From Bacteroidales bacterium (GTDB lineage Bacteria; Bacteroidota; Bacteroidia; Bacteroidales; VadinHA17): 64,000 bases of DNA. Positions within the stretch are counted from its first letter, which is position 1. Every line of letters begins with the position of its first letter. The position numbers and the translations under genes are program-made. A model generated the notes under the pieces. That model saw only the letters and a list, made by a program, of their open reading frames with translations, made no database searches and was not told where the DNA came from. This document shows positions 12,504-49,170 of this stretch, one piece after another. The DNA is taken from contig OY764960.1 in the NCBI GenBank assembly GCA_963668715.1, positions 2,959,602 through 3,023,601 on the forward strand, given 5' to 3'.

Positions 12504-12685
12504 ATTTTGGCAGGTTTTCTGACTTACTCTGTCTTTGAACGCCCTTCCCATCCCGGGTTTTCGGGACAGTGGATTGAGTATTGTTCAAAGATTTTGGAAG
12601 AGCTTACAGCAGCGGGTCTGTTCAGGATTTACACCTGATTCCCTTTTCACCATTTTTACGAAAATGTAAAATATGGCACCAAAAT
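12504..12685 (-). promoter_or_regulatory. Cobalamin (AdoCbl-type) riboswitch
   Basis: The minus strand reads GGGAATCAGGTGTAAATCCTGAACAGACCCGCTGCTGTAAGC (12643-12602). It continues CCACTGTCCCG...GGGATGGGAAGGGCG and ends with the B12 box AAGTCAGAAAACCTGCC (12525-12509). A P1 helix can form between ATTTTGG (12685-12679) and CCAAAAT (12510-12504). I matched this to the RF00174 consensus from memory only. Confidence 0.85.
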
Positions 12686-12691
12686 CTGTGA

Positions 12692-12699
12692 CAAAAATA
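12692..12699 (-). promoter_or_regulatory. Bacteroidota -7 promoter-like box (TATTTTTG) for the riboswitch operon
   Basis: TATTTTTG on the minus strand ends 6 nt before the predicted P1 5' arm of the riboswitch. Confidence 0.45.
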
Positions 12700-12821
12700 A
12701 TGGATTGCTGTAAACAAAAATATGTTTGATATCAGTTTTTATGAAAACAAAGGGTTTGAAAGTCTGAGGCTGGCAAAGTGCATAGTGAAAAGCCTACAGT
12801 ACACAATGTTAATTCGTTGAT

Positions 12822-12877
12822 TTGTTAAGTTGTTAAGTTGTTAAGTTGTTTAGTTGTTAAGTTGTTTAGTTGTTTAG
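12822..12877. repeat. Tandem 8-nt word array (TTGTTAAG/TTGTTTAG x7), word family D
   Basis: Read directly: ttgttaag x3, ttgtttag, ttgttaag, ttgtttag x2. The same words recur at 46242-46298. Confidence 0.9.
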
Positions 12878-21225: not shown

Positions 21226-21736
21226 TTATCTGGTAAAGTAGTTCATTGCTGAAGCCATCTTTTTCTCTGAGCCAGTCTTTTTTAACACCTATTTTAATGA
21301 AGCCCAGTTTTTCGAACAGGGAAACGGAAGGTTTATTCTCCTCGGTAATATTGCAATAAACCTGGTGAAGCTTAAGATGGTTAAAGCAATAGTCCAGAAC
21401 ACATTGCAAAGCCATTCTTGCAAAGCCTTTTCTCCTCTCATCCTTTTCAGCAATAAGTATGCCTACTCCTGCACGCAGATTAAACGGATCGAAATCAAAG
21501 ATATCGACGGTTCCGATCGTCTTTCCGCTGTCTCCGATAATTATCATGAATCTTATCTGGCCTGTCTCAAAAACGGATTTATTCGAATTTTCTATATATT
21601 TTCTGAGTGTATACTTTGAAAACGGGCTAAGTGTGCTACTTACCAGCCATGTCTCAGGGTCGTTTTCCCAATCATAAAGAAGATCAAGGTCTTCAGGTTC
21701 GGGAGCCCTTAATTTTATTTTATCGCAGATCATCAT
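21188..21736 (-). CDS. GNAT family N-acetyltransferase (RimJ/RimL-like)
   Basis: KLRAPEPEDLDLLYDWEND, RRKGFARMALQCVLDYCF. I chose the ATG at 21736 (or 21733), which overlaps the stop of the upstream gene. The 3' end overlaps the convergent M24 gene by 38 nt. Confidence 0.75.
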   Translation of the reverse strand: MMICDKIKLRAPEPEDLDLLYDWENDPETWLVSSTLSPFSKYTLRKYIENSNKSVFETGQIRFMIIIGDSGKTIGTVDIFDFDPFNLRAGVGILIAEKDERRKGFARMALQCVLDYCFNHLKLHQVYCNITEENKPSVSLFEKLGFIKIGVKKDWLREKDGFSNELLYQIISPSSRKDVQYP

Positions 21737-24230
21737 GTCTATCCTGAAGTGTTTGTTTTTCAAGTATATCAATTGCCTTAATAAAAGCTGATCCGTAACC
21801 GGCATCATGTATCACGGAAAGAGCCTGTCTTGCCCTTGAATAACCCTGGTATTCACCAATGATATAACGGTAGAAACCATCTGCACTTTTTACTTCCCTG
21901 ACATTTTCAAGTCCTCTGAAATCTCCTGATGCTTTATTCTTAAGAGCATGGATCTGAATAGTATAAAGCTCAGGCAGTTCTTTCCGCGGGGCTGATGATT
22001 CGGGAAGGTCATATTCGGTTATTATATATGAATTTTTGAATCCTTTATCTGTGAGATCGGTCAGGCAGGAGAGAGCATCAAGTCTTGTCCTGAATCCGCC
22101 GAGAGCATATATATAATTGTTATTTAGCCGGTATTCGTTGATGAATGAGAACTGGCTTATCCCGAAGGTACTGAAGAATCCGGCTGAAAGCGGAGTGGCG
22201 GATTCCTTTATAACCACATAGAAACCGTAGTTATAAGGCTTCTTAAGATGGACAGGTACATTGAGATATGATTCAACAGGCAACAGATAACCGTTATTTT
22301 TAATATTGATGCTTACTCTGCGGTTGTATATGCGTCCGGTGGGATTGTCTTTTCCATTGGGTGTGAAATTGTCAGTAATAAAGTTCACTTCACCAGGCGC
22401 TTTTGTACTGAGTCTGTTTATATCAATACCCGCCTTAACCAGATAATCCCTTACTTTTACCGCTCTTTCCATGGAGAGCTTTTTATTATATGAAGCGCTT
22501 CCGATAGCATCGGCATATCCTTCGATTATGATATTCAGGTCGGGGTGGGAGAGAAGAACAGGTATAATTTTTTCAATTTCAATTTTGGCTTCTCTTTTAA
22601 GTCCGGTACTGTCGAAGCCGAAGAGAATATTCCTGATAGCAAGAAATTCACCGCTTGCAACCTTTTCAGGTATCAGATTACCGGTAATATATATATCCTT
22701 TTGTTCATATGACTCCGGAATACACAAGTTCACCGTATCAGTAATATATCCCGGGTATCTGAAGATAAAGTCAAACATTCCTTTTTGCAATTCTGAACTG
22801 AAGCTTCCTGATGAGTCGGCTCTGACAGATGCAAGCAGGGAGTCTTTTCCTGCGGCATATACTGATATTTCCAGTTGTGAAGGAATTATATCCAGTCCGT
22901 CTTCAAGAGACACATTCCCCATGGCAGTAATATGTCCGGATACGGCTTTTCCCAGTATACCCACAATATATATATTACTGAATGAAGAAGTGTCATCAGG
23001 GGGTATGCTTAATATTCCGGACCCTTCTGCACGTGGTACAAAATTAAGATCGTCCGATGTGGTATTAATTGGATATGGTATATGTACGGGATATGACCAG
23101 GTCCTGTCTTTACGGGAGTAGAAGATATCGTAACCGCCAAAGCCTTCGTGACCGGTAGAACTAAAATAGAGTGTTCCGGTTTTACTGTCATAATACGGGG
23201 TATTTTCTTCGAGAGAGGTGTTTATGACAGGGCCCAGATTTACGGGCTGAGATGCATTGAATTTATCATCAAGCTCTGCACTGTATATATCCAGACTGCC
23301 GTAGCCGCCGGGCATGTTGCTTGCAAAATACAGCATGGTACCATCGTTACTGATGCAGGCATGAGACTCCCAGTATTTTGTGTTCACATTCTTTCCAAAT
23401 TTATCAAGTCGGCTCCAGTTACCGTTTATCCGGTGCGACAGGTAAATATCTCCTCTGATACCGTTATTACGGGATATAACCAGTGTTTTACCATCTTTGG
23501 TTATCGAATTGGTATACATATCCTTATAATTACCGAGGTCGTCACTGATATTTTCAGGCACTGACCATGAGCCCGTATTTTTATATGAGCAATATATCCT
23601 GTTCTCATACTTCTCTTTTACAGTAAAGACAAATACAGAATCATTACCTGAGATAACCGGATTTATGGCATTACGGAAATCTGTTAGCCATGGCGCCAGC
23701 AGTTCTCTGGAGATCATCATGCTGGTGTCGGCTGACAGCAGAGTAAGACATGCTTTTATCTGTATATCTATATACTCAATTTCCCCTGCCTTCGTGACTT
23801 TTAGAAGGTTACGGTATTTTTTATAGCTTTCAACAGCTTTTTCGAGTTCCATGTTTACCTGATATGCAAATGCCAGGTAATAGTTTACATCAATAGGTGA
23901 TTTATCGCCAAGAGTTGAATAAGCAGGATCGTCAACCCATGATGATGAAGCATATTCGAGCAGTTCAAGTGCTTTTTTCTTTTTGCCCGTCATATTGAGG
24001 TAGCATACTCCCAGCTTATAATTCAGATTATGATTGCCGGGTTGTGTCTCCATAAGCTTCTCATATATACTGGCAGCTTCAGTGTAGTTTTCATCATATA
24101 TGAAATATCCGTCTGCCTCATTTGTCAGTCTTGTAATAAGTCTGATGTCGGACAATTCATCCTGGGCAGTAATATTAAGTATGCAAATAGAAAGAAAAAC
24201 AGTAATTATAGAGAACCTGACGGCATTCAT
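21720..24230 (-). CDS. TPR + TolB-like PD40 beta-propeller + OmpA-like + two SPOR-like domains (paralog D)
   Basis: Signal peptide and TPR-like helices (YKLGVCYLNMTGKKKKALELLE). PD40-like blades (YWESHACISNDGTMLYFASNMPGGYGSLDIY, YFSSTGHEGFGGYDIFYS). OmpA_C motif (NIIIEGYADAIGSASYNKKLSMERAVKVRDYL). C-terminal SPOR-like segments (YTIQIHALKN...GFYRYIIGEYQGYSRARQAL). Confidence 0.7.
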   Translation of the reverse strand: MNAVRFSIITVFLSICILNITAQDELSDIRLITRLTNEADGYFIYDENYTEAASIYEKLMETQPGNHNLNYKLGVCYLNMTGKKKKALELLEYASSSWVDDPAYSTLGDKSPIDVNYYLAFAYQVNMELEKAVESYKKYRNLLKVTKAGEIEYIDIQIKACLTLLSADTSMMISRELLAPWLTDFRNAINPVISGNDSVFVFTVKEKYENRIYCSYKNTGSWSVPENISDDLGNYKDMYTNSITKDGKTLVISRNNGIRGDIYLSHRINGNWSRLDKFGKNVNTKYWESHACISNDGTMLYFASNMPGGYGSLDIYSAELDDKFNASQPVNLGPVINTSLEENTPYYDSKTGTLYFSSTGHEGFGGYDIFYSRKDRTWSYPVHIPYPINTTSDDLNFVPRAEGSGILSIPPDDTSSFSNIYIVGILGKAVSGHITAMGNVSLEDGLDIIPSQLEISVYAAGKDSLLASVRADSSGSFSSELQKGMFDFIFRYPGYITDTVNLCIPESYEQKDIYITGNLIPEKVASGEFLAIRNILFGFDSTGLKREAKIEIEKIIPVLLSHPDLNIIIEGYADAIGSASYNKKLSMERAVKVRDYLVKAGIDINRLSTKAPGEVNFITDNFTPNGKDNPTGRIYNRRVSINIKNNGYLLPVESYLNVPVHLKKPYNYGFYVVIKESATPLSAGFFSTFGISQFSFINEYRLNNNYIYALGGFRTRLDALSCLTDLTDKGFKNSYIITEYDLPESSAPRKELPELYTIQIHALKNKASGDFRGLENVREVKSADGFYRYIIGEYQGYSRARQALSVIHDAGYGSAFIKAIDILEKQTLQDRHDDLR

Positions 24231-26152
24231 TCCCTGTTCCCCCTGAAGACGGTTTTTACAAATATTTCTTCAGGGTAACCCTGCCTGATAAGCTCATCCC
24301 TTCTTGTGTAAGCTTCACCCTTAGTCTCGAACTGGCCGGTTGTATATCTGTAGAAACGGTCGTCATCGTTATACACTACAGTTACCCTGGTATTCTTAAA
24401 GAAGCTCACATCGACAGGATTATAAAGAGCCATAAGCTGAATGGTGTAATACAGAACATCAGCATTGGTTGAGTCGGAATCACTTACATCTTTTATAATA
24501 ACATCGGTAACCAGTATTGATGAGTCTATCTCATCTATAACAGTGACTTTGGAAAAATCAAGTTTTTCAAATTCTTCAGGTATTTCGGCCACATAGTTAG
24601 TGTCGGGTTCAAGTGTAATGTTGATTATTTCCTCTTTTGAAGGGTGATCCTCAAGTATAGTAAGTTCCCTGGTAACAGGTATGTATGCAGGTCCTTCATA
24701 GGTAAGGCTGTAGATATCAGGTTTAACAAGGAAGCTGTAATGCCCGGATGTTTTGTTGGGATAACCGACGTCCAGGGTATCTTCAGATGAATTACTGTAC
24801 AGTATTATCCTGTAGTCATCAGTAAATTCTATTATTGTATCACTCAGGCTGAGCACTCCCTTTATTTCAAAAGTAGGTATTGACTGCTTCTCACCCAGAT
24901 TGATATAATAAATATCTTTTTCCTTATATCCTGTTACCATTGAATAAAAGGCATTTTGCCCGTTAATATATGGAAAGAAGAACAGGTCATCGTCAGGTGT
25001 ATTGACAGGGTAGCCGATATTGGAAGGGCTTTTCCATATACCACCTATGAGTCTTGATCTGAAGATATCATATCCCCCTATATTAGTGTGGCCTTCGGAG
25101 CTGAAGAACAGGATGGAGTCATTATTGGTTATAAAGGGTGTGTCTTCATTAAAAGGAGTATTTATTGCTGATCCCAGGTTTCTGGGATTTCCCCATTCTC
25201 CCTTACTGTCTTTTTCGGATACATATATATCCAGGCCTCCTTCTCCACCGTCCCTGTTTGATGTAAAATACAGTTTGTCTCCGCCGGATGATATTGAAGC
25301 ATGGGATTCATAGAACTTTGTATTTATATTCCTGTTCAGTTTTTGTACTCTTGACCATGACCCGTTTTCAAATGTCGACATATATATGTTTCCGTCGAAA
25401 TTATCATTTTTGTACAGGTATAGTTCAGTGCCGTCATAATTCAGCGAGTTGGAACTGCAGTCGGTATCCCCGCCGAGTTGTGCTGTAATATCTACAGGTT
25501 CGCCCCATTCACCTCTTTCTTTCTTAACATAATATATAGTATTTTCAAGACCTCTTTTTTCAGTATAGACCAGTGTGTTCCCGTCGCCGCTGACAGTTGG
25601 GTTAATATTAACCGAGCCCAGGTTTATGTCCGGACCCAGGCTTTCCTTACTGAAGTCAACGGGTTTTTCAACGGATGTCATAGCATTTCTGCATGCGCGT
25701 ATCTGCTGGTCGATAAAGTCTGCATTTTCCAGTTCTCCTTTGTCGGGCATCAGTTCATTGAGTTTAGCATATGTGCCCAGTGCTTTTTCAAATTCATAAT
25801 TGATCCTGTATGCAGAGGCAAGCGCAAAATATGCTTCAAGCGGAGCTCTGGTTTCCCTGAAAGATTCGGAGTTGGCATCATAGCTGGAATTCTTCACCGC
25901 ATCTTCAAGGTATGGTATGGCTTTTGTTTTTTCATCGGGAATATGCAGATAACAATTACCTATTTTAAATTTGATATTGGCATTTCCCGGCATATATTCG
26001 TCAAGAATGATGTAGAGCGGGTTTGCCAGTTCATATTCTCCGTACAGGTAATGTGATTCAGCCTCCACAAATATTTCGCGGAGATCGTCATTCTGCCCAT
26101 TGATATTAACAGCAATCAGGAGAATTATGACAGTAATAAGACTTCTATGCAT
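24227..26152 (-). CDS. TPR + TolB-like PD40 beta-propeller + SPOR-like domain (paralog C)
   Basis: The N-terminal TPR/PD40 architecture matches its neighbours (FYESHASISSGGDKLYFTSNRDGGEGGLDIY, FFSSEGHTNIGGYDIFRS). The C-terminus YYTIQLMALYN...RFYRYTTGQFETKGEAYTRRDELIRQGY is SPOR-like. It overlaps paralog D by 4 nt. Confidence 0.7.
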   Translation of the reverse strand: MHRSLITVIILLIAVNINGQNDDLREIFVEAESHYLYGEYELANPLYIILDEYMPGNANIKFKIGNCYLHIPDEKTKAIPYLEDAVKNSSYDANSESFRETRAPLEAYFALASAYRINYEFEKALGTYAKLNELMPDKGELENADFIDQQIRACRNAMTSVEKPVDFSKESLGPDINLGSVNINPTVSGDGNTLVYTEKRGLENTIYYVKKERGEWGEPVDITAQLGGDTDCSSNSLNYDGTELYLYKNDNFDGNIYMSTFENGSWSRVQKLNRNINTKFYESHASISSGGDKLYFTSNRDGGEGGLDIYVSEKDSKGEWGNPRNLGSAINTPFNEDTPFITNNDSILFFSSEGHTNIGGYDIFRSRLIGGIWKSPSNIGYPVNTPDDDLFFFPYINGQNAFYSMVTGYKEKDIYYINLGEKQSIPTFEIKGVLSLSDTIIEFTDDYRIILYSNSSEDTLDVGYPNKTSGHYSFLVKPDIYSLTYEGPAYIPVTRELTILEDHPSKEEIINITLEPDTNYVAEIPEEFEKLDFSKVTVIDEIDSSILVTDVIIKDVSDSDSTNADVLYYTIQLMALYNPVDVSFFKNTRVTVVYNDDDRFYRYTTGQFETKGEAYTRRDELIRQGYPEEIFVKTVFRGNRE

Positions 26153-26159
26153 AGCAGGC

Positions 26160-27437
26160 TTACTTAAATGTTATTTTATATATATCCTCCTTACCAAAAC
26201 CTTTTCCTTCCCTGAGCACTGAAATATAACCTGTACTTCCGTCCCCTACAGGCATAAAGAAATAGTCGTCATCCGAACTGTTGAGGGGGTAACCCAGGTT
26301 TTCCGGTTTTGACCATTTCCCGTTATCAAGCATGTCAGACCTGAAGAGGTCAAATCCACCCATATTATAATGACCCTGTGAGCAGAAAAACAGTTGCTTC
26401 CCGTTATTAACAAGAAAAGCCCTGTCTTCATTAAACGGTGTATTTATTTCAGGCCCCAGATTAATTGCTTTTCCCCATTCCCCTTTCTCGTTCCTGTAAC
26501 ATACATACAGATCAAGACCTCCCATTCCTCCTGGTCTGTCGGATGAAAAGATCATTGCTGACCCGTCGTCAGAAACAGTAGCATGAGATTCCCAGTAGTT
26601 TGTATTTATATTTCCGGATAGAGGCTCTGCAGCCGACCATTTAATGCCGTCGTAGCGGCTTAGATATATGTCGCTTTGGTCATTATTGTCTTTCGACATA
26701 TAAAGTGTGTTACCATTATCGGCAAGGCAGGATATATAAAGGTCACCGTCGGATTTCAGATCAGGGGTGATATTAACAGGAGGGCTCCATCTTCCTTTCT
26801 CCCTGAACGAAAAAAAGACGGCATCGTAAAACTTGAGAGAAGACATATACACAAACCGTAGTCCGTCGGCTGATATCACAGGATTAAAGTTACTGTTTGA
26901 GTCGTTAAACTGTTCCCCGATATTTTCCTCATCATATTTTACGGGTTTGCTCATCAGGTTTTTAGCATTATCGCAGACATCGATCTGATGTTCAATGAAC
27001 AATATATTATCGGTGTCATCATCGAGTAATGTTTCCCTGTATTTCTTATATGCTTCTTTGGCTTTGTCGAACTGGTAGTTTATTCTGTATGCGTTACCCA
27101 GGAAATACCAGGCCGTATAGGGTGAGGTTGCCTGACGCAGCGACCCTTCCTTATACGATGCGCCGGAGTATTTTGCAGCATCTTCAAGATACTCTATAGC
27201 TTTGTTTTTTTGTCCGGCTATTCCCATGTAACATATTCCAATCCTGTAGGAAAGGTTATGATTATCCGGATAGGCTTTAAATAGTTCCAGATAGTAAGGC
27301 AGAGCATCGGTATAATCTTCAAACATAAGAAAGTACTCAGCTTCCAGAAATGTTTCCTGATCTTTCTTAAAATTCTGGGAGTAAATGTTACTGCCAATGA
27401 TTGTAAAAAGAATCAGACTTGTTAATATTCGAGTCAT
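26160..27437 (-). CDS. TPR + TolB-like PD40 beta-propeller protein (paralog B, no C-terminal extension)
   Basis: Signal peptide, TPR-like region (YRIGICYMGIAGQKNKAIEYLE) and PD40 blades (YWESHATVSDDGSAMIFSSDRPGGMGGLDLY, FFCSQGHYNMGGFDLFRS). The gap to paralog C is 7 nt. Confidence 0.7.
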   Translation of the reverse strand: MTRILTSLILFTIIGSNIYSQNFKKDQETFLEAEYFLMFEDYTDALPYYLELFKAYPDNHNLSYRIGICYMGIAGQKNKAIEYLEDAAKYSGASYKEGSLRQATSPYTAWYFLGNAYRINYQFDKAKEAYKKYRETLLDDDTDNILFIEHQIDVCDNAKNLMSKPVKYDEENIGEQFNDSNSNFNPVISADGLRFVYMSSLKFYDAVFFSFREKGRWSPPVNITPDLKSDGDLYISCLADNGNTLYMSKDNNDQSDIYLSRYDGIKWSAAEPLSGNINTNYWESHATVSDDGSAMIFSSDRPGGMGGLDLYVCYRNEKGEWGKAINLGPEINTPFNEDRAFLVNNGKQLFFCSQGHYNMGGFDLFRSDMLDNGKWSKPENLGYPLNSSDDDYFFMPVGDGSTGYISVLREGKGFGKEDIYKITFK

Positions 27438-27534
27438 ATCCCGGGAGATTTGATTATAACAAAAATATTAAATTAATAAGAATATAAAAACCTGAATTAA
27501 TATATATAAAGCCAGACATTCATATTGTTATTAT

Positions 27535-30036
27535 TTAATCATTTTTTTTCTTTTTTTTTCCGGCTCCGAAAATTATTACAGTAACAGCCACTCCTCCCAG
27601 GATTATCCACAGAACCCACAGCTTTCTTCCTTTACCGGACTGGATATAGTCAACAATTTCTTCTGCCGTCTTATCGGTAGCGTTTATTATTTTCGAGAAT
27701 GCTTCAAATACTTCGTCCTTTGTATAGCCAAGCCTGTCTGTATTGCTTAGGAGGTAGCTGATTATTTCCTCGGGGCTGTGTTTTTTAAGTTCATCGAGAT
27801 CTATCTTTTCCAGTGATGCTTTCAGGTTATGATCTGCATACTGTACAAGCCTGTCCAGATATTCTTCGGCGCTGTTTCCAGACTCGGCAGACATAGCAGC
27901 GATAAGCTTTGTAAGAAGTTCTTTTTCAGCACCGTCCTCTATTGCCACCGAATACAATGATTCAAGCCATTCTCCTGCTTTCTTGATCTGTTTTTCATTT
28001 GTTTTCAGAATAGCTTCTTTAATTGTATTATCTGTTTCACTTACTTCAGTTATGATCTGACCCATGCGGTCGATAGATTCAGTCTCTTTTGTCTGAGTTG
28101 CCTTAAGACTGTCAAGAGCTCTCTGTTGAGCAAGCAGTACCTGTGGATCGGGTTCAGTAACCGGTTCTGTAATCTCCGGCTTAATTTCAGGTTCACTGGC
28201 AAGGAACTCAAAATCTTTTATAGTGACATTGTTGAACCGGTCCCTGATAGTAAATTTAAGTTTGTTATCACCTGTGACTGCTTCAGTTTTATAGTTAAAT
28301 GACGGTTCGTTAATATAGAATTCTTCTGTTTTAATCAGGCTGTCGCCCTGCCAGTGTTCAACGGTCAGTATTGAATTGGGTTCAAGTGTAAGGTCAAACA
28401 TGGCAGTATCACCCCGGCTGTATATAAGTGAGTCGAATACAACCGGTATTTCTATTTCAGCAATGAAGTCTGTTTTATGTAGTTGTTCTTCAGGCATCAG
28501 AATGCTGTCGGAGGGGTGTATCAGATCTATTCTCAGGTCTTTTTCAATTTTTTCGGAACCATCAGACTGATATACAACTTTATAATCCCCTTGTGGTATT
28601 TCGAACTCATACCGGCCGGTACGGGGATCAGAGTATACAGCTACCAGTGTATCCATGTTAGACTTTTCGAGTGCATAAATTTTCACGCTGTCGCTGTACT
28701 GGCTTAAAAGGTCCTTAAGTTTTACCATTCCTCTGACATAGAATTTTCTCGGATGTTCTTCGGAGAATACTTCCACCCTGTAAATATCCTCCATCCCAAA
28801 ACCATTAGGGTCAAACATTGAAACATATGCCAGATATCCCTCGCCTACAGGTGAGAAAAACACATCATCATCAGTAGTATTAACCGGGTATCCCATATTG
28901 ACAGGGACAGACCACTGGCCGTTTTCCATTTTTGTTGAATAGAAAATATCATGGCCTCCCATGTTAAAGTGCCCTCTGGAGCTAAAGAACAGAACGTTGT
29001 CGCTGCTGCCGAGGAAAGGTGTCTCTTCGTTAAACGGCGTATTGATAACAGGCCCCATGTTCACGGCCGGTCCCCAGTTGTCCAGGCTGTCTTTTTCGGA
29101 TACATAAATATCCAGCCCGCCGTAGCTGTCTTTACGGTTGCTTGTAAAGTAAAGTTTCTTGCCGTCGTTTGAGATGCATGCATGCGATTCCCAGTATTTG
29201 GTGTTTATGTTTTCGTTAAGTTTTTCAGCCGGCGTCCATCGTCCGTCAACGTAGTTACTGACGTAAATATTTCCGTCATAGCCGTCGTCCCTGTAGATAT
29301 ACAACTCTGTTCCGTCATGTGACAGGCACGTTGAATAACCGTCGTCAATCAGCAACTCTTCCTGTATCTGTACGGGAGGAGACCATACCGAATCAACTTT
29401 TTTTGAATAGAATATACCTTCATAAAAGGGCAATTCCCGTGTAAACACTATTGTTTTTTCATCGGCTGATACTACCGGACTGACATCTGATCTCTGGTCG
29501 TTTATAAATTCCCCCTGGTTCTCACGCTTGAGGTAAAGGGGGGTTTTCATAAGCTCTTTTGCATTTCTGCAGGCTTCAATTTGCAGCTTTACGATTGTTG
29601 AATCATACATTTTATGATCCATGCCCCTGTAGAAGGAACCGTATGTTTCAATTGCCTTATCCAGTTGGTTTGTTATTCTGTATGCTGTTGCGAGGTAGAA
29701 CAGGGCATCATAGGGGGCCTCTGTTTCTTTGAAACGGCCTTCCTTGTATTTCAGGTTAATATGTTGAACAGCACCCTGCAGATATGGTAATGCTTTTTCT
29801 TTTTCTCCCGGTGTATTAAGATAGCAGACCCCGATCCTGTATTTATAGTTATAGTTTTCAGGGTAGATATCCAGCAGATCCAGGTAAAGAGGGAGCGCTT
29901 CGGGGTATTCCTCGAACAACATCCAGGACTCGGCCTCAAAAAACATATCCTTGATTTCCCTCCTGCTTTGCGCTGATATTGTAGCTGAACTTAATAATAG
30001 GGCAATCAGTAGGAGTTTAATAGCCTGTCTGTTCAT
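27535..30036 (-). CDS. TPR + TolB-like PD40 beta-propeller + Ig-like/helical extension + C-terminal TM tail anchor (paralog A)
   Basis: Signal peptide and the same TPR/PD40 core (YWESHACISNDGKKLYFTSNRKDSYGGLDIY, FFSSRGHFNMGGHDIFYS). A ~400-aa extension ends in LWVLWIILGGVAVTVIIFGAGKKKKKND. Confidence 0.7.
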   Translation of the reverse strand: MNRQAIKLLLIALLLSSATISAQSRREIKDMFFEAESWMLFEEYPEALPLYLDLLDIYPENYNYKYRIGVCYLNTPGEKEKALPYLQGAVQHINLKYKEGRFKETEAPYDALFYLATAYRITNQLDKAIETYGSFYRGMDHKMYDSTIVKLQIEACRNAKELMKTPLYLKRENQGEFINDQRSDVSPVVSADEKTIVFTRELPFYEGIFYSKKVDSVWSPPVQIQEELLIDDGYSTCLSHDGTELYIYRDDGYDGNIYVSNYVDGRWTPAEKLNENINTKYWESHACISNDGKKLYFTSNRKDSYGGLDIYVSEKDSLDNWGPAVNMGPVINTPFNEETPFLGSSDNVLFFSSRGHFNMGGHDIFYSTKMENGQWSVPVNMGYPVNTTDDDVFFSPVGEGYLAYVSMFDPNGFGMEDIYRVEVFSEEHPRKFYVRGMVKLKDLLSQYSDSVKIYALEKSNMDTLVAVYSDPRTGRYEFEIPQGDYKVVYQSDGSEKIEKDLRIDLIHPSDSILMPEEQLHKTDFIAEIEIPVVFDSLIYSRGDTAMFDLTLEPNSILTVEHWQGDSLIKTEEFYINEPSFNYKTEAVTGDNKLKFTIRDRFNNVTIKDFEFLASEPEIKPEITEPVTEPDPQVLLAQQRALDSLKATQTKETESIDRMGQIITEVSETDNTIKEAILKTNEKQIKKAGEWLESLYSVAIEDGAEKELLTKLIAAMSAESGNSAEEYLDRLVQYADHNLKASLEKIDLDELKKHSPEEIISYLLSNTDRLGYTKDEVFEAFSKIINATDKTAEEIVDYIQSGKGRKLWVLWIILGGVAVTVIIFGAGKKKKKND

Positions 30037-34409: not shown

Positions 34410-34465
34410 CTTTAGTCTTTTGTCTTTAGTCTTTAGTCTTTTGTCTTTAGTCTTTAGTCTTTTGT
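34410..34465. repeat. Tandem 7-nt word array (CTTTAGT/CTTTTGT x8), word family A
   Basis: Read directly: ctttagt cttttgt ctttagt ctttagt cttttgt ctttagt ctttagt cttttgt. A degenerate cttcttc unit follows. Confidence 0.9.
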
Positions 34466-34476
34466 CTTCTTCTACA

Positions 34477-35097
34477 TCATTCCCCGCTATCAAAAGGCGT
34501 CCTGTTGACTATTGACCTGCCCAGGGTTACCTCATCAGTATATTCAAGCTCGTCTCCAACAGCCACTCCCCTTGAAAGAGATGTGATCTTTATATTATAT
34601 GGTAATAATCTGCGGTAAATATAATAGTTGGTCGTATCTCCTTCCATAGTGGTGCTTAATGCGAATATGACCTCATCGACCCCCCTTTTTTTTACTTTGT
34701 CCTCAAGCTGATCGATATTAAGGTCGGAAGGACCAATGCCATCCATAGGAGAAATTATCCCGCCAAGGACATGATACAGACCTCTGTATTGTCCTGTATT
34801 TTCAACTGCTATAACGTCTCTGATGTTTTCTACAACACATATTGTTGCTTTGTCCCTGGATCTGTCACTACATATATCGCATACTTCGTTATCAGAAATA
34901 TTAAAACATATTTTACAGTATTTGATCTCTTTCTTAAGCTTTATGATACTTTCCCCGAATCTTTCTACGTCGGAATCTTTCTGTCTGAGTAAATGCATTA
35001 CCAGTCTGAATGCTGTTTTTTTGCCTACTCCCGGCAGGGATGCAAATTCATTTACAGCACTTTCAAGAAGTTTTGATGGATAATCTGAAAAAGTCAT
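34477..35097 (-). CDS. recR: Recombination protein RecR
   Basis: HhH N-terminus ([12 protein letters not shown]), C4 zinc finger [18 protein letters not shown], Toprim region, 206 aa. Confidence 0.9.
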
Positions 35098-37725: not shown

Positions 37726-37796
37726 ATGTATAATACAAAACCGATGTCAAAAGTATGAAAAATGACTGTCCTAAAAAAGCCATGTTATACGATGAA

Positions 37797-38131
37797 GGGC
37801 AAAAGACAAAAGACTAAAGGAATGGAATGATGGAGTAAAGGAATAAAGGAATAATGGAATGATGGAATGATGGAATGATGGAATGATGGAATAATGGAAT
37901 AATGGAATGATGGAATGATGGAATGATGGAATGATGGAATGATGGAATGATGGAATGATGGAATGATGGAATGATGGAATGATGGGTCTTAAAAAGTAAA
38001 TAACATGAGACAGAATGCATACTGTCCGTTTGTCGTTAGTCGTTAGTCGTTTGCCCTTAGTCTGAACAACCCATTTAAACTCATTCTCAATCTTTTAAAC
38101 CCTTTTGTCTTTAGTCTTTAGTCTTTTGTCG
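37797..38131. repeat. Composite intergenic word-repeat element (modules A', B array, spacer, A variant, C', A)
   Basis: gggcaaaagacaaaagactaaag (37797-37819), then (ggaatgat)n, a 40-nt unique spacer and tttgtcgttagtcgttagtcgtttgcccttagtc. Next comes tgaacaacccatttaaactcattctcaatcttttaaaccc, then ttttgtctttagtctttagtcttttgtcg. The end arms are inverted complements. Confidence 0.9.
37819..37985. repeat. Tandem 8-nt array, about 20 copies of GGAATGAT (variants GGAATAAT, GGAATAAA, GGAGTAAA), word family B
   Basis: I counted units directly from 37824 to 37983: 20 full units plus partial units at both ends. Confidence 0.95.
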
Positions 38132-38136
38132 TACAA

Positions 38137-40773
38137 TCAGCCGGTTATGTCTTTTACCAGTTCCCTGACTCTGTCGAGAGCTGCTTTAATACCTCCGGGA
38201 TCACTTCCTCCGGCAACCGCCATAAACGGCTGGCCTCCTCCTCCTCCTTTTATCCGGCTGGCGGCATCACGCACGATATTTCCTGCATGGATATTCTTTC
38301 CTTTAACAAGATCATCACTAATCATTATCAGCAGGTGAGCCTTGTCTTCAATTTGTGTCCCGACAGCAAGAATGATGTTTTTATGTGCCGTTCTTATCAT
38401 CTGGGCGATCTTTTTCAAAATATCAACCGAGTCGACATCTATCTGTTCAGCTATAAAATTAATCCCTCCGATCTCTTCTGATTTATTAATCAGTTCAGTT
38501 CGTAAAGTTGCAGATATTCCGGATTCCAGTCTTTCAACTCTTTTATTAAGGTCATTGACCTGTTTAATGATCCTTGATACTGATTCTGTTATATCAGTAT
38601 TGCCCGGAAGCATATTTTCTATTTCTTCCAGTGTGGCGAGCTTGTTGTTTATATAGTCCAGGGCATGAGCGGAAGTGACAGCTTCTATTCTTCTTATACC
38701 TGCTGCAACAGCAGTTTCGGAAATAATTTTGAACATACCTATCTGCCCTGTATTTGAAACATGCGTACCGCCGCATAATTCAAGCGATTCCCCGAACCCG
38801 ACCACACGTACCTTTTCGTCATATTTTTCACCGAACAGGGCAATTGCTCCTTTTTCAAGTGCTTCATTCACCGGCATGTCTTCAATAATGCTGGCAGGAA
38901 TGTTTTTCCCTATAATTTCGTTAACAAGGTTTTCAATTTTCCTGATATCTTCGGGACTTATTTTTCCAAAATGGCTGAAGTCGAAACGTAGTTTTTTATC
39001 TGTAACCAGTGAGCCTTTCTGTTCAACATGCCTGCCAAGTATTTTTCTTAAAGCGTAATGCAGCAGGTGCGTTGCGGTATGGTTTCTGGCAGTTGCTTCC
39101 CTTTTACCGGTATCTACGAATGCCCTGTATATTTCATGAGGTTTTGCAGGTATTTTATTACTGATATGGATAATAAGGTTATTTTCTTTGACCGTATCGG
39201 TAATTATTATCTTCTCTTCACCGTTTGTTATGTATCCTGTATCGCCTGCCTGCCCTCCCGATTCGGCATAAAAAGGTGTTTTATCGAAGACCATCTGATA
39301 CAGTTCCTTTCCTTTTGCCTTAATTATACGGTATCGTGTAAGTCTGACTTCATCCATGGTTGTTTTGTAGCCGGTAAATTCCGTCCCCAGGTGTTCCTTT
39401 ACGATAGTCCAGTCGCCTGTTTCTTTTTCAGCATCGGTCTTTGATCTTTGCTTTTGTTTTTTCATCTCCCTTTCAAAACCTGACGTATCTACCTCTATTG
39501 AGCTTTCTCTAAGTATAAGTTGGGTAAGGTCAAGAGGAAATCCGTAGGTATCGTAAAGGACAAAGGCATCTTCTCCGGGAAAAATATTGGTCTCTGATTT
39601 TTTTATTTCAGGTAAACGCTTTTCTATAAGCTTAATACCCTTCCCTAAAGTATTGAGAAAGGCAATTTCTTCCTGTTTGATGGTTGTTGTAATATGTTGT
39701 TCCTGTGATCTCAGTTCCGGGAAGTATTCTCCCATGGTTTTTACGAGAACGGGAACGAGCCTGTAAATAAAGGGTTCATCCTGTCCAAGATAGTTATACC
39801 CGTATCTTATAGCCCTTCTGAGTATTCTTCTGATTACATAACCGGCCTTGTTATTTGAAGGTATCTGTCCGTCGGCCACTGAAAACGACACAGCCCTGAG
39901 GTGATCTGCCACCACCCTCAATGCTATATCGGTTTCTTCCCTTACATTGTATTTTATTCCTGTAATTGATGATATTTCGGTTATAAGCGACTGGAAAATG
40001 TCAGTATCGTAATTGGACTTTTTCCCCTGTACTGCCATACACAGCCTCTCAAAGCCCATCCCCGTATCGACATGCTTGTCGGGAAGCAATTCGAGCGATC
40101 CGTCTGCCTTCCTGTTATATTGAATAAACACAAGGTTCCATATCTCAATAACCAGAGGATGATTTTTATTTACGAGTGTATGTCCCGGAACATTCTTTCT
40201 TTCATCATTATCCCTGAGATCAAGATGTATCTCCGAGCACGGACCGCAAGGTCCCGTATCGCCCATTTCCCAGAAATTATCTTTTTTCGACCCGTTCAGT
40301 ATCCTGTTCCCGGTATCTCCCAGGTGCAAAGCCCAGTACCGGGCCGATTCGTTATCCCGTTCAAGTCCTTCTTCACTGCTGCCTTCAAATACCGTTGCAT
40401 AGATCCTGTCGGGAGAAATATTTAGTACTGAAGTAAGGAACTCCCAGGCCCATTCAATGGCTTCTTTCTTAAAATAATCCCCGAATGACCAGTTGCCCAG
40501 CATTTCAAACATTGTATGATGATAGGTGTCACGGCCAACTTCTTCGAGATCGTTATGCTTACCGGAAACCCTCAGACATTTCTGGCTGTCTGCCAGTCGT
40601 TTGCTTACCGGCTTTTCGTTTCCCAGAAAAATATCCTTAAACTGGTTCATCCCGGCATTTGTGAACATCAGTGTGGGGTCGTTCTTAAGCACCATGGGGG
40701 CTGATTTGACAATACTGTGTCCCTTTTCGCTGAAAAAATCAAAAAATGCCTTTCTTAGTTCTCTGGAATACAT
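38137..40773 (-). CDS. alaS: Alanine--tRNA ligase
   Basis: 878 aa, N-terminal FFDFFSEKGH, editing-domain HTATHLLH and CGGTH, C-terminal DHHA1-like GGGGGQPFMA. Confidence 0.95.
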   Translation of the reverse strand: MYSRELRKAFFDFFSEKGHSIVKSAPMVLKNDPTLMFTNAGMNQFKDIFLGNEKPVSKRLADSQKCLRVSGKHNDLEEVGRDTYHHTMFEMLGNWSFGDYFKKEAIEWAWEFLTSVLNISPDRIYATVFEGSSEEGLERDNESARYWALHLGDTGNRILNGSKKDNFWEMGDTGPCGPCSEIHLDLRDNDERKNVPGHTLVNKNHPLVIEIWNLVFIQYNRKADGSLELLPDKHVDTGMGFERLCMAVQGKKSNYDTDIFQSLITEISSITGIKYNVREETDIALRVVADHLRAVSFSVADGQIPSNNKAGYVIRRILRRAIRYGYNYLGQDEPFIYRLVPVLVKTMGEYFPELRSQEQHITTTIKQEEIAFLNTLGKGIKLIEKRLPEIKKSETNIFPGEDAFVLYDTYGFPLDLTQLILRESSIEVDTSGFEREMKKQKQRSKTDAEKETGDWTIVKEHLGTEFTGYKTTMDEVRLTRYRIIKAKGKELYQMVFDKTPFYAESGGQAGDTGYITNGEEKIIITDTVKENNLIIHISNKIPAKPHEIYRAFVDTGKREATARNHTATHLLHYALRKILGRHVEQKGSLVTDKKLRFDFSHFGKISPEDIRKIENLVNEIIGKNIPASIIEDMPVNEALEKGAIALFGEKYDEKVRVVGFGESLELCGGTHVSNTGQIGMFKIISETAVAAGIRRIEAVTSAHALDYINNKLATLEEIENMLPGNTDITESVSRIIKQVNDLNKRVERLESGISATLRTELINKSEEIGGINFIAEQIDVDSVDILKKIAQMIRTAHKNIILAVGTQIEDKAHLLIMISDDLVKGKNIHAGNIVRDAASRIKGGGGGQPFMAVAGGSDPGGIKAALDRVRELVKDITG

Positions 40774-45494: not shown

Positions 45495-46249
45495 AAGCAG
45501 GCGGGAAAGAAATGACCGTTGAGGAAAAACTAAAAGCCTTGTACAGGCTGCAGGTTGTAGATTCAGAAATAGATAAAATAAAGACACTCAGGGGTGAACT
45601 TCCGCTTGAGGTACAGGACCTTGAGGATGATGTTGAAGGTCTCGAGACCAGAATAACCAAACTTAAGGAAGAATTGGCTGATCTCGAAAATGCTGCCAGG
45701 GGCAAGCAAAACGAAATAGTGGATGCTGAGAACCTTATTAAAAAATATGAGGAACAGCAAAACAATGTGCGTAACAACAGGGAATATGATTCCCTTTCAA
45801 AGGAAATAGAATACCAGACCCTCGAGATAGAGTTGTGCAATAAAAAAATAAAGGAATATACGGGTCTGAAGGAAGAAAAGACAGTCGTCATTGAAGACTC
45901 GAAGAAGAATCTGGAAGAGTTGAAAGGTGATCTGGAGAATAAGAAATCGGAGCTTGACTCAATAATTGCCGACACAAGGAAAGAAGAAGAAGCTCTTGTG
46001 AAAGATTCTGATAATATTGGCAAGGTCATAGAAGACAGACTGTTAACAGCATATAAACGTATACGGCAGAACGCAAGGAACGGACTGGCAGTAGTTCCTG
46101 TCCAAAGAGATGCCTGTGGGGGCTGTTTTAACCAGATACCGCCGCAACGACAGCTTGATATTAAATCAAGAAAAAAAATAATAGTGTGTGAGTACTGCGG
46201 ACGTATACTGGTTGACGATGAAATACTTGGTGAAGAAAAAGCTGTTTAG
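45482..46249 (+). CDS. Coiled-coil protein with a C-terminal C4 zinc ribbon (DUF164-like Nif3 partner)
   Basis: E/K-rich coiled coil, then CGGCFNQIPPQ...CEYCGRIL. This pairing with nif3 is conserved. An alternative start is the ATG at 45512. Confidence 0.75.
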   Translation: MEKVKAGGKEMTVEEKLKALYRLQVVDSEIDKIKTLRGELPLEVQDLEDDVEGLETRITKLKEELADLENAARGKQNEIVDAENLIKKYEEQQNNVRNNREYDSLSKEIEYQTLEIELCNKKIKEYTGLKEEKTVVIEDSKKNLEELKGDLENKKSELDSIIADTRKEEEALVKDSDNIGKVIEDRLLTAYKRIRQNARNGLAVVPVQRDACGGCFNQIPPQRQLDIKSRKKIIVCEYCGRILVDDEILGEEKAV

Positions 46250-46337
46250 TTGTTAAGCTGTTTAGTTGTTAAGCTGTTAAGGCTGTTAAGCTGTTGATGG
46301 CCTTTAGCCTTTTGTCTTTAGCCTTTTGTCGTTTGCC
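46242..46337. repeat. Word-repeat locus: D-type 8-mers (CTGTTTAG/TTGTTAAG) followed by A-type 7-mers (CCTTTAG/CCTTTTG)
   Basis: ctgtttag ttgttaag ctgtttag ttgttaag ctgttaag gctgttaag ctgttgat, then cctttag ccttttg tctttag ccttttg tcgtttg. The TAG stop of the upstream gene (46247-46249) lies inside the first unit. Confidence 0.9.
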
Positions 46338-46442: not shown

Positions 46443-48458
46443 ATGAATGAGTTCCATAAACAAATTCTGGAGGGTATTCCTGATGTGCTTCCGGCAGTTA
46501 AGCCATATGACAGCAATGTCAATCATGCACCGAAACGTAAAGATATACTTACAGCAAAAGAAAAACGTCTTGCAGTAAGAAATGCCCTGAGGTATTTTCC
46601 TGAAAATATGCATGAGCAACTGGCTGGTGAGTTTGCCGGTGAACTGAAAAAGTACGGCAGGATATATATGTACAGGTTCAGGCCTGATTATGTGATCAAG
46701 GCAAGGCATATCGATGATTTTCCACACAGATCAAGGCAGGCAGCTGCCATCATGTTAATGATAAGTAACAACCTGGATGATGCGGTGGCCCAGCACCCCC
46801 ATGAACTGATTACTTATGGCGGTAACGGGGCTGTATTCCAGAACTGGGCGCAATACAGGCTTGTTATGAAGTACCTGGCTACAATGACAGACCGTCAGAC
46901 CCTGGTTATGTATTCGGGTCATCCGCTAGGGCTTTTCCCTTCACATACAGAAGCTCCGCGTGTTGTTGTAACAAACGGAATGGTCATTCCTAATTATTCC
47001 AGCAGTGATCACTGGGAGAAGTTCAATGCGCTGGGAGTGAGTCAGTACGGACAGATGACGGCAGGTTCATATATGTATATCGGACCTCAGGGTATAGTGC
47101 ACGGTACAACAATAACGATCCTGAATGCTGCCAGGAGTATATCAGTCTCTGATACTGATAAAAGGTTAAAGCTGTTTGTTTCTTCCGGATTAGGGGGAAT
47201 GTCGGGGGCGCAGCCCAAAGCAGCAAGTATAGCAGGCGTAATATCCGTGATAGCAGAGGTTAATCCGAAAGCTATTGAAAAAAGGTATTCGCAGGGCTGG
47301 GTTGATGAGGTTATTGAAGATACCGCCGGCCTGGTTAAAAGAGTGAAGGAACTCAGAGAAGGAGATGAACCTGTTTCACTTGCATATCACGGAAATATAG
47401 TGGATGTATGGGAAGCTTTTGCTGAAGAAAGTATCATGGTCGATATAGGTTCAGATCAGACATCCCTTCATAATCCATGGTCAGGAGGATATTATCCGGC
47501 AGGCATAAGTTTTGAAAAAGCCAACAGCATGATGTCGGAGGATCCCGGTCAATTCAGGAAACTGGTACAGCAGTCATTGAAGAGACAGGTAAAGGCTATT
47601 AACAGACATACTGCCGCCGGAACATATTTTTTTGATTATGGTAATGCATTTTTACTTGAAGCATCCAGGGCAGGGGCAGATATTCTTAATTCTGATGGTA
47701 GCTTCAGGTATCCAAGTTATGTTCAGGACATTATGGGACCTGTTTGCTTTGACTATGGCTTCGGTCCTTTCAGGTGGGTATGTTGTTCAAACAGAAATGA
47801 AGATCTTGTTGTCACAGATGATATTGCCTGCGGTGTGCTTGAAGAAATATCGGCACACTCGCCGGAACGGATAAAGCAACAGATGCTTGACAATATTAAA
47901 TGGATCCGTGAGGCAGGTAAGAATAATCTGGTAGTAGGATCACAGGCAAGAATACTTTATGCTGATGCAGAGGGCAGGATAGAGATAGCTTCAGCCTTCA
48001 ACAGGGCTATAAGGGACGGAAGGATAAGTGCTCCTGTAGTGCTGGGCAGAGATCACCATGACGTGTCGGGCACGGACTCACCATTCAGGGAGACATCAAA
48101 TATTTATGACGGGTCGTGTTTTACAGCCGACATGGCAATACAGAATGTTATAGGTGATTCTTTCAGAGGCGCTACCTGGGTAAGTATTCATAATGGCGGC
48201 GGAGTAGGATGGGGTGAGGTCATAAACGGAGGGTTCGGACTTCTGCTTGATGGCTCGGATGATGTTGACAGACGATTGAAAACAATGCTCCACTGGGATG
48301 TTAATAATGGAATTGCGAGGAGAAGCTGGGCAAGAAATGATGAAGCTATGTTTACTGCAATCAGGGAGATGGAAAGAACGCCTGAACTGAAAGTGACAAT
48401 GCCTTATATAGCGGATGATAAGCTGATCGAAAATTTGTTCAGGGAAAAGGACGACTAA
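46443..48458 (+). CDS. hutU: Urocanate hydratase
   Basis: 671 aa, GLGGMSGAQPKA NAD-binding segment, YGGNGAVFQNW, GRDHHD; overall urocanase-like. Confidence 0.85.
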   Translation: MNEFHKQILEGIPDVLPAVKPYDSNVNHAPKRKDILTAKEKRLAVRNALRYFPENMHEQLAGEFAGELKKYGRIYMYRFRPDYVIKARHIDDFPHRSRQAAAIMLMISNNLDDAVAQHPHELITYGGNGAVFQNWAQYRLVMKYLATMTDRQTLVMYSGHPLGLFPSHTEAPRVVVTNGMVIPNYSSSDHWEKFNALGVSQYGQMTAGSYMYIGPQGIVHGTTITILNAARSISVSDTDKRLKLFVSSGLGGMSGAQPKAASIAGVISVIAEVNPKAIEKRYSQGWVDEVIEDTAGLVKRVKELREGDEPVSLAYHGNIVDVWEAFAEESIMVDIGSDQTSLHNPWSGGYYPAGISFEKANSMMSEDPGQFRKLVQQSLKRQVKAINRHTAAGTYFFDYGNAFLLEASRAGADILNSDGSFRYPSYVQDIMGPVCFDYGFGPFRWVCCSNRNEDLVVTDDIACGVLEEISAHSPERIKQQMLDNIKWIREAGKNNLVVGSQARILYADAEGRIEIASAFNRAIRDGRISAPVVLGRDHHDVSGTDSPFRETSNIYDGSCFTADMAIQNVIGDSFRGATWVSIHNGGGVGWGEVINGGFGLLLDGSDDVDRRLKTMLHWDVNNGIARRSWARNDEAMFTAIREMERTPELKVTMPYIADDKLIENLFREKDD

Positions 48459-48795
48459 AGACCAAAGGCTAACGACGAAAGGCAAAAGGATTTAAAAGGT
48501 TGAGAATGAGTTGAGAATGAGTTTAAATGGATTGTTCGGACTAAAGGCTAACGACGAACGACTAAAGGGTTGAGAAAAGTTTATAAAAGTTGAATGAGTT
48601 TAGATGACTCCTAATTAACTAATCACCCAATATACAAATTAACATTGTGGATTGTGGACTGCGGATTGAGGACGAAAGGCAGAAGGGTTTAATAGGTTGA
48701 GAATGAGTTGAGAATGAGTTTAAAATGTCATCATTCCAGTACTCCAGTATTCCAGCATTCCACTCCTTTAGTCTTTTGTCTTTCGTCGTCAGTCC
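48445..48795. repeat. Composite intergenic word-repeat element (A', C, A', C-like, unique, E words, A', C, B', A)
   Basis: It is colinear with the reverse complement of 37797-38131. For example, caaaaggatttaaaaggttgagaatgagttgagaatgagtttaaatggattgttcggactaaaggctaacgac matches caaaagggtttaaaagattgagaatgagtttaaatgggttgttcagactaagggcaaacgac. The right end is tcatcattccagtactccagtattccagcattccactcctttagtcttttgtctttcg. Confidence 0.9.
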
Positions 48796-48804
48796 TGTAT
48801 GTAA

Positions 48805-49170
48805 TCAAAAATTGCTGTTGTTCAGCATTATAAGCATACAATCCTCAATTACCTCAATACCCTGTGAACGAGCCATGTCGGCAAAGACCGGATTGCGTGT
48901 GCCGGGATTAAATATAATACGTCTGGGCTCAAGCGACAGGATATAATCGTAATATTCCTCCTGGTTCTTAGGGTTAAGATAAAGGCTTACCGTATGTACC
49001 GGACCTATATTATCAGGCTTGCCCTGCCTTATTTTTATCCCGTCAAGGTCAGCATCTTTCCTTCCGATAGCTATTACAGGTATATTCCTTCTTTGAAGGC
49101 TTCTGACAGCCTTATAGGCGAACCTGTCGGGTTTGTGGCTTGCTCCCAGGACTAATGTGGTTTTTTCCAT
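48805..49170 (-). CDS. CoA-binding domain protein
   Basis: 121 aa, TTLVLGASHKPDRFAYKAVRSLQRRNIPVIAIG Rossmann-like CoA-binding motif. Confidence 0.75.
   Translation of the reverse strand: MEKTTLVLGASHKPDRFAYKAVRSLQRRNIPVIAIGRKDADLDGIKIRQGKPDNIGPVHTVSLYLNPKNQEEYYDYILSLEPRRIIFNPGTRNPVFADMARSQGIEVIEDCMLIMLNNSNF

Follow-up and report, generated by a model that had tools for sequence, protein, structure and literature searches.

Contig OY764960.1 of a Bacteroidales bacterium (assembly GCA_963668715.1) carries, within the 64,000-nucleotide (nt) stretch analyzed here (hereafter, the window), a composite of short tandem words that starts at the very end of hutU, the gene for urocanate hydratase, and that resembles a second composite located after alaS on the opposite strand. 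This raises the questions of what kind of object these composites are, how they came to lie at gene ends, and whether their orientation reflects a functional constraint or an insertion polarity, as proposed in an initial annotation of this DNA. We lean towards the view that the region next to hutU is a copy of a non-autonomous mosaic interspersed repeat specific to this lineage; gene ends would tolerate such a repeat, which may serve as a 3′ hairpin there.

Anatomy and homology of the two copies

The hutU coding sequence (CDS; 46443-48458, plus strand), assigned on the basis of its Pfam Urocanase domains, source names and homologues, ends inside the element, as its last codons and TAA stop (..GAA AAG GAC GAC TAA AGA..) lie within the first repeat words. 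The next gene, CoA_binding_2 (48805-49170, minus strand), is convergent with hutU and has its stop codon at a distance of only 9 nt from the element's right end. In the window, 346 nt lie between the two stop codons, and the element takes up this entire gap. Together with a 9-nt tail (TGTATGTAA), it constitutes the ~358 nt (48447-48804) that are new with respect to related genomes.

Read along the plus strand, the element opens with a first array of purine-rich heptamers, termed A′ (GACGACT AAAGACC AAAGGCT AACGACG AAAGGCA AAAGG; 48450-48489), which forms the left arm of an inverted repeat. It is followed by a conserved core in common with the alaS copy (48490-48538), composed of the linker ATTTAAAAG, 2.3 copies of the 11-mer GTTGAGAATGA and the junction GTTTAAATGGATTGTTCG. 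Further downstream are a degenerate A′-plus-11-mer unit (GACTAAAGGCTAACGACGAACGACTAAAGG, then GTTGAGAAAAG..GTTGAATGAGTTTAGATG; 48539-48606; direct-repeat family D1), an AT-rich spacer with no other match in the window (48607-48643) and 4.1 copies of ATTGTGG-type heptamers (48644-48672), the 3′ part of which pairs with the bases just past the right arm. The remainder is predicted to form a compact long hairpin (48663-48795) from a third A′ arm GACGAAAGGCAGAAGGG, 2.3 11-mers, the loop TTTAAAATG, degenerate 8-mers and a pyrimidine-rich A arm. Within it, the third A′-plus-11-mer unit covers 48671-48727, approximately four 8-mer units (TCATCATTCC AGTACTCC AGTATTCC AGCATTCC ACT; direct-repeat family D2) cover 48728-48764, and the heptamers CCTTTAGTCTTTTGTCTTTCGTCGTCAGTCC of the A array (48765-48795; inverted repeats I1-I4) provide the right arm.

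The sister element (37787-38136, minus strand; ~350 nt) lies 3′ of the alaS CDS (38137-40773, minus strand; also assigned from Pfam domains, source names and homologues), whose stop codon precedes it by 6 nt. In minus-strand order, it contains an A′ array (38130-38101), the linker with one 11-mer and the junction (38100-38063), GACTAAC-type heptamers (38062-38024), a small stem-loop (38027-38008), an AT-rich stretch, 20.5 copies of the 8-mer CATCATTC (37985-37822) and, finally, the A arm CCTTTAGTCTTTTGTCTTTTGCCC (37820-37797). The sequence and module order that the initial annotation described after both genes are thus in place. Two features had escaped it, namely that the ends of the element are inverted repeats of each other and that the hutU stop codon falls inside the first repeat word. 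Two of its modules also need to be redefined. Its “second A′-C unit” (48671-48724, direct repeat D3) is indeed a 54-nt copy, 94% identical to 48474-48527, of the A′-plus-11-mer part, but it is devoid of the C junction; likewise, its “C-like segment” (48539-48606) is a repeat copy, but really a degenerate A′-plus-11-mer unit, 79% identical to 48460-48529 by BLASTN.

The two copies were compared by BLASTN without the low-complexity filter and by MAFFT pairwise alignment, and both methods gave a left and a right block that are colinear and in the same relative orientation. The left block (48460-48565 versus 38130-38036) comprises 106 columns with 78% identity, including an 11-nt indel (E = 1.8e-21, BLASTN). 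This indel corresponds to one 11-mer copy, and identity amounts to ~92% on the MAFFT alignment when it is set aside. The right block (48729-48783 versus 37856-37802) comprises 55 nt with 84% identity (E = 3.8e-11, BLASTN). Order is therefore conserved, and the similarity is not confined to short words. Furthermore, exactly two occurrences of the non-repetitive 35-mer GTTTAAATGGRTTGTTCRGACTAARGGCWAACGAC and three of a 25-mer at the A′-to-11-mer junction were counted in the window, with none expected in either case (100 shuffles). On the strength of these alignments, the hutU and alaS copies are homologous beyond the repeat words that they share. The contention that this is not random low-complexity DNA holds as well, since the loci have homologous, colinear and partly non-repetitive sequence in common.

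What is conserved is a core made of the linker, the 11-mers and a GTTTAAATGGrTTGTTC junction, flanked by tandem arrays of variable number. The 8-mer is present in 3.9 copies at hutU versus 20.5 at alaS (~5 versus ~20 in the initial annotation), and the 11-mer in 2.3 copies versus 1. Despite this very different internal composition, the added DNA is of near-equal length at both loci (358 versus 350 nt). Tandem Repeats Finder reported period-7 arrays at 48455-48488, 48644-48672, 48766-48787, 38102-38130 and 38027-38062, as well as at 34410-34468, outside the two elements. These 7-nt units are arranged head-to-tail in non-coding DNA, as is typical of heptamer simple-sequence arrays; however, the elements are more than a simple array, because the non-repetitive 25- and 35-nt junctions are kept between the loci. 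The remaining BLAST matches of both elements were limited to three intergenic arrays, two of the same words (34410-34468 and 46239-46330) and one of a related word (12807-12874).

Orthologous sites in relatives and mosaics in metagenomes

The nearest relatives, in which hutU is 82-83% and alaS 73-74% identical, are all uncultured Bacteroidota or Bacteroidales with conserved gene order. In three related lineages (L036-L039, L040-L042 and L049), hutU and CoA_binding_2 overlap by 4 nt (TTAA), so that the hutU element in its entirety represents added DNA; in L047, a more distant lineage, hutU and ispF are 27 nt apart. The flanks of the element realign with those of the relatives through TTCAGnGA on the left and TnAAAAnTT...GCTGTT on the right, the latter being the NS(S/N)(K/N)F* end of the CoA gene. 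The C-terminus of the hutU product reads LFREKDD* in the window versus LF[SGK]D* in relatives.

At the alaS locus of two related lineages (L043/L044 and L045/L046), a spacer of ~165 nt downstream of alaS leads to a 592-aa AMP-binding (acyl-CoA ligase-like) gene, beyond which lies DUF6452. The AMP-binding gene (L043 7638-9661, L045 7638-9662) is present in all four related contigs. No trace of it was found in the window by tblastn, and similarity to the relatives resumes only at the DUF6452 promoter region (37786-37697); together, these observations indicate that ~2 kb were replaced by ~350 nt of element. The 3′ half of the terminator of the lost gene persists (GGCTTTTTT), whereas its left half is gone with the deletion. 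The alaS element is located exactly at this deletion. With regard to the wider neighborhood, no intergenic 7-, 8- or 11-mer arrays were present in ~68 kb of syntenic DNA of the relatives, and five intergenic regions of the 64-kb window bear arrays. Judged from these orthologous sites, the element is derived and lineage-specific and arrived as added DNA.

Searched with an exact 19-mer of the right arm, the metagenome collection yielded 34 contigs, many of which hold true intergenic arrays. Two loci from one sample series (Ga0102925/Ga0102926), L006 and L008/L009 (the latter two being one locus from two samples), hold mosaics that run from a stop codon through purine heptamers, hexamers, a small palindromic core and (GAGTTTGAATGA / GTTGAGAATGA)n to GAGTTTAAtATG. 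Beside the stop codon, they have in common with the window elements the A words and the 11-mer with its 3′ junction (GAGAATGAGTTTAA; GAGAATGAGTTTAAwATG), whereas L027 contains the A words and a related skeleton without the 11-mer array and without the GAGAATGAGTTTAAwATG junction. This sample series has a colinear mosaic family of its own (L008 2630-3026, L006 2100-2260, L027 2900-3300), characterized by a small palindrome that is conserved (ATATGCA..TGCATAT) and by GC-rich hairpins within the 11-mer array.

The array itself provides the stop codon at hutU and in L007, L009, L025, L027 and L035. Unrelated open reading frames (ORFs) in L007, L009 and L035 share an array-encoded tail, ..KTKD*, from AAAGACAAAAGACTAA, and comparable array-supplied ends are ..KKTKG* in L027 and the TAA of TAAAGAC in L025. 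The ORF of L009 also reads (AAGGCT)n hexamers as AKAKAK, which results in a K/E/D/A-rich C-terminal tail. An inverted partner was observed in a minority of arrays (L012, L021, L032 and the two window copies). In L004, L020 and L024, a common module (GGGCCGAGCGTTnAGAA...GCCCGG) adjoins heptamer arrays and possibly represents a further dispersed repeat of those organisms. No plasmid matched the element by BLASTN; in viral contigs, the double 11-mer had no match and the A words had one chance match in coding sequence.

Inverted ends, predicted folding and orientation

Both copies end in inverted repeats, with heptamers GACTAAAG/GACAAAAG/GACGAAAG at the left end and their complement at the right end, which pairs with them in a stem of ~16-20 bp. 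At hutU, inverted repeat I3 (48469-48488 versus 48773-48792) is 20 nt long and 90% complementary, and 19 of the 20 arm positions pair at alaS. The inverted-partner scores exceeded those of shuffled flanks with z = 6.3 at hutU and z = 11.3 at alaS; both copies thus possess the terminal inverted repeats that are expected of miniature inverted-repeat transposable elements (MITEs). A change on both arms preserves pairing (GACGAAAG/CTTTCGTC at hutU versus GACAAAAG/CTTTTG at alaS). In addition, the 11-mer GAGAATGAG is partly complementary to the 8-mers CATCATTCC, which makes the element a nested imperfect palindrome.

In the folding tests, only the compact hairpin at 48660-48800 stood out: the predicted energies were -52.1 kcal/mol for the plus strand (z = -5.9) and -35.5 for the minus strand (z = -3.9). 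Owing to six G-U pairs in the hutU hairpin, its sense strand is 16.6 kcal/mol more stable than the antisense strand; this asymmetry was rejected as evidence for an RNA strand, since it favours opposite strands at hutU and alaS. Compared with shuffled controls, the left A′-11-mer-junction unit had less predicted structure (z = +1.2 and +1.8). Searches of Rfam gave no match at gathering scores and none that was meaningful at permissive thresholds, the lone match (19.7 bits, to a plant microRNA precursor) merely reflecting the long hairpin. A Rho-dependent terminator, for which the C-rich, G-poor 8-mer array might serve as a rut-like site, was set aside, since pairing is predicted for the pyrimidine arm.

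With regard to orientation, the initial annotation had taken the conserved polarity as an argument for a functional or insertion-polarity constraint. The two copies do share their polarity relative to hutU and alaS, but with n = 2 the chance probability of this agreement is 0.5. Moreover, the hutU copy lies between convergent genes, so that its upstream gene is ambiguous, and, the ends being inverted repeats, a transcript from either side reaches a purine-rich arm before the other one. In the window, simple arrays made of the same words occur in both orientations relative to the upstream gene (34410-34468 versus 46300-46330; 12807-12874 versus 46239-46295), and the heptamer arrays in metagenomes comprise ~9 that are purine-sense at a stop codon and ~9 that are pyrimidine-sense 8-38 nt upstream of a start codon. 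The orientation rule is therefore without statistical support, and the constraint derived from it is not supported. A rule of “purine arm first” was also tried for hairpin-type loci and discarded, as it held in five out of six (L021 has the pyrimidine arm first) and was not significant. The order of stop codon, A′ and 11-mer recurs in four of four independent 11-mer mosaics (the two in the window, L006 and L008/L009), for which the chance probability is ~0.06-0.12; this is a weak hint and not a result.

Candidate explanations and other arrays in the window

By analogy of architecture, the closest known system is the pneumococcal BOX element, bacterial interspersed mosaic elements (BIMEs) are also close, and the building blocks are those of known intergenic heptamer arrays. 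The class of object is accordingly a familiar one, a mosaic interspersed repeat, built here from simple-sequence arrays in Bacteroidota. The BOX elements of Streptococcus pneumoniae and S. suis (boxA-(boxB)n-boxC) and the terminator-like SPRITE are modular, vary in an internal tandem module, fold into stem-loops and are enriched downstream of genes; BOX was judged parasitic by the authors, with possible co-option (Croucher et al. 2011, PMC3049150). As in BOX, two terminal modules that pair together enclose here a tandem module that varies in number, in a composite, lineage-specific repeat that lies mainly downstream of genes, has a predicted stem-loop fold upon transcription and can modify gene ends. 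The modules differ in that they are arrays of 7-, 8- and 11-nt words instead of unique blocks of 45-50 nt, and the host phylum is Bacteroidota; given these differences, the likeness is one of architecture, and sequence homology is not expected.

BIMEs, repetitive extragenic palindromes (REPs) and REPINs, which are mobilized by IS200/IS605-like Y1 enzymes known as REP-associated tyrosine transposases, or RAYTs (Nunvar 2010, PMC2817692; Bertels and Rainey 2011, PMC3116915; Di Nocera 2013, PMC3733652), are likewise modular, form stem-loops and are enriched downstream of genes (PMC2817692). They resemble the present element as extragenic mosaics at gene 3′ ends, with palindromic units in alternating orientation and variable linkers, and their proposed roles include termination and mRNA stability. 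In contrast to REPs, however, the element has no 20-40-bp palindrome with a GTAG or CGTC tag (CGTC is present only as part of the word GACGAAA), its units are direct words of 7-11 nt, its arms are tandem heptamers with stems 90-300 nt apart, and the window holds no RAYT gene. MITEs, of which the Correia elements of Neisseria are an example, share with it a length of ~350 bp, a non-coding nature, terminal inverted repeats, an intergenic location or overlap with gene ends, and presence or absence between lineages; here, no target-site duplication is detectable and the terminal repeats are low-complexity arrays.

As for heptamer arrays, TAACTGA repeats occur in Beggiatoaceae, Cyanobacteria and five Bacteroidetes and are missing from the same intergenic regions of close relatives, and Elizabethkingia harbors “larger assemblages of heptamer repeats” in nearly identical intergenic regions (MacGregor 2015, PMC4679880). 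The likeness to the present arrays lies in tandem 7-nt intergenic words that are mixed with other heptamers, change in 7-nt length steps and are absent in close relatives; the difference lies in the words and in the fact that here the arrays make up a colinear element that has inverted ends plus a non-repetitive core and that recurs at separate loci. Cyanobacteria reportedly carry further heptamer repeats, the short tandemly repeated repetitive (STRR) sequences ascribed to Mazel et al. in 1990.

If the element is a mosaic interspersed repeat, its copies would stem from a common template, via transposition in trans or via recombination or templated copying, and replication slippage would then have changed the arrays (the 8-mer, 4 versus 20; the 11-mer, 2 versus 1; the A′-plus-11-mer unit, triplicated at hutU). 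Every word has stops on both strands, and the 7- and 8-nt periods stop all three frames, so that insertions could survive at gene ends; an insertion into the last codons would merely exchange a few C-terminal residues. Transcribed as part of a 3′ untranslated region, the element would fold into a long stem-loop, which most likely would serve as a transcriptional block or insulator, or as protection from 3′ exonucleases, for the flanking genes, but could equally be neutral. Support for this functional step is weak, and the evidence for mobility is incomplete.

Several observations weigh against this mosaic-repeat reading. The window contains two full copies, plus internal partial units; the core 25-mer had no match in the metagenome collection, and, among 185,579 species genomes, the exact core 20-mer matched once, by chance, within a SusC-type CDS, which leaves a high copy number unproven. 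A Pfam scan of the ORFs in the 64 kb revealed no transposase or RAYT. The initial annotation had suggested that closely related strains be compared for presence or absence of the element and for target-site duplications: the element is absent from the orthologous sites of related lineages, but no duplication is evident at hutU or alaS relative to the empty sites, where protein identities of 73-83% could hide a short one. Concerning a role as a 3′ hairpin, the relatives lack any spacer next to hutU, and hence no function is needed at this site. Whole-element folding energies were unremarkable with respect to shuffled controls (z = -1.2 to -2.7), and the better-folding strand is the sense strand at hutU and the antisense strand at alaS, which gives no consistent sign of selection at the RNA level. 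Finally, the terminator search found no U-tract after either outer stem; the terminator-like sites that it returned were limited to the small internal stem-loop at 38027-38008 and one within the CoA_binding_2 gene, and the short GC-rich stem plus U-tract of an intrinsic (Rho-independent) terminator is missing.

Were the likeness between the copies to result from constraint and not from mobility, the element would instead be a selected cis-acting one, acting as a long bidirectional terminator or insulator or as an mRNA-stabilizing 3′ stem-loop. This would suit its position directly after stop codons, in one case between convergent genes, as well as the stability and G-U bias of the hutU hairpin described above and the alaS locus, where the loss of the left half of the old terminator makes the element the sole structure between alaS and the next promoter; the pneumococcal SPRITE, possibly co-opted as a terminator, provides a precedent (PMC3049150). 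We nevertheless regard this explanation as unlikely, because the same junctions are empty in all relatives examined and the internal content is highly variable, to which the missing U-tracts, the antisense preference of the alaS copy and the lack of an Rfam match must be added. It seems distinctly unlikely that the element is a binding platform for an RNA- or DNA-binding protein that recognizes tandem heptamers, as proposed for TAACTGA in Beggiatoaceae, with the purine-rich, unstructured 5′ half as the ligand: no protein emerged as a candidate binder, the words are found in either orientation and in various contexts, and relatives keep the same genes without arrays. The low predicted structure of the left unit would be in agreement with such a platform, as would the frequent location of the same words 8-38 nt upstream of start codons in metagenome loci, which recalls the position of TAACTGA (PMC4679880).

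Two further explanations dispense with a dispersed element. Template switching or fold-back synthesis at a double-strand break could have copied words from other arrays as a filler, and the combination of deletion and insertion at alaS (~2 kb to ~350 nt), the near-equal lengths of new DNA (358 and 350 nt) and the inverted arms with internal duplications, such as snap-back synthesis would give, speak for this process; an ancestral GATTAAAA at the hutU stop that resembles the word GACTAAAG might even have provided microhomology. We see only a slight chance for it, given that ~160 nt that are colinear across two loci and species (L006, L008) fit the copying of a whole element better and that, to our knowledge, no such mechanism has been documented in Bacteroidota. 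Independent slippage in place at each locus, with the likeness reflecting a genomic vocabulary of short words, is very improbable: the non-repetitive 35-mer and 25-mer junctions common to the loci, the two colinear BLAST blocks and the lack of intergenic DNA at the hutU junction as a starting point all contradict it, even though simple arrays of the same words stand alone at 34410, 46239 and 12807 and heptamers are, in the work on long simple sequence repeats by Mrazek (2007), as far as it is summarized in PMC4679880, the commonest of such repeats in prokaryotes.

The mosaic-repeat reading can also be extended. The elements might represent an undescribed class in uncultured Bacteroidota, consisting of self-complementary mosaics of stop-codon-rich 7-, 8- and 11-nt arrays that preferentially insert at or within a few bases of stop codons, in many cases bringing along the stop and a short K/D/E-rich tail, move from genome to genome, promote the loss of neighboring genes (such as the AMP-binding gene by alaS) and terminate or insulate in either direction; we consider this rather doubtful. 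If the family itself were confirmed genome-wide, mosaics of the BOX/BIME type would be extended to Bacteroidota and would be linked to the poorly understood heptamer arrays of cyanobacteria, Beggiatoaceae and a few Bacteroidetes. The hutU and alaS loci provide clean before-and-after pictures, of a wedge of ~350 nt between genes that overlap in relatives and of an element at a gene loss, and thereby allow the arrival of the repeat, a possible driving of deletions and a possible terminator action to be tested. Arrays of this kind alter gene 3′ ends; in metagenome-assembled genomes, they probably also disrupt assembly from short reads and gene calling.

Regarding the simple arrays elsewhere in the window, that at 34410-34468 consists of 8.4 copies of the A words CTTTAGT/CTTTTGT after RecR, between the RecR gene (34477-35097, minus strand) and an aminotransferase gene; the TGA stop of RecR is part of a GAATGATG word, complementary to the 8-mer in the alaS element. 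Between the Zn_ribbon_9 gene and hutU (46239-46330), (AAGCTGTT TAGTTGTT)n is followed by (CTTTAGCCTTTTGT)n, and the TAG stop of Zn_ribbon_9 falls in the first unit. The spacer of the relatives is short at this site, with an ordinary intrinsic terminator in L036. The array at 12807-12874 comprises 8.5 copies of TTGTTAAG-type words and precedes a cobalamin riboswitch (12492-12698, minus strand; 104.9 bits), which in turn lies upstream of a TonB-dependent receptor gene (10351-12366). Two gaps in the simple gene map (1104-2056 and 21226-21719) are coding-like without a long ORF, which may be due to unusual starts or frameshifts. Lastly, 21720-30036 (minus strand) encodes four consecutive paralogues with PD40 beta-propeller repeats, two of which also contain TPR and one an OmpA domain.

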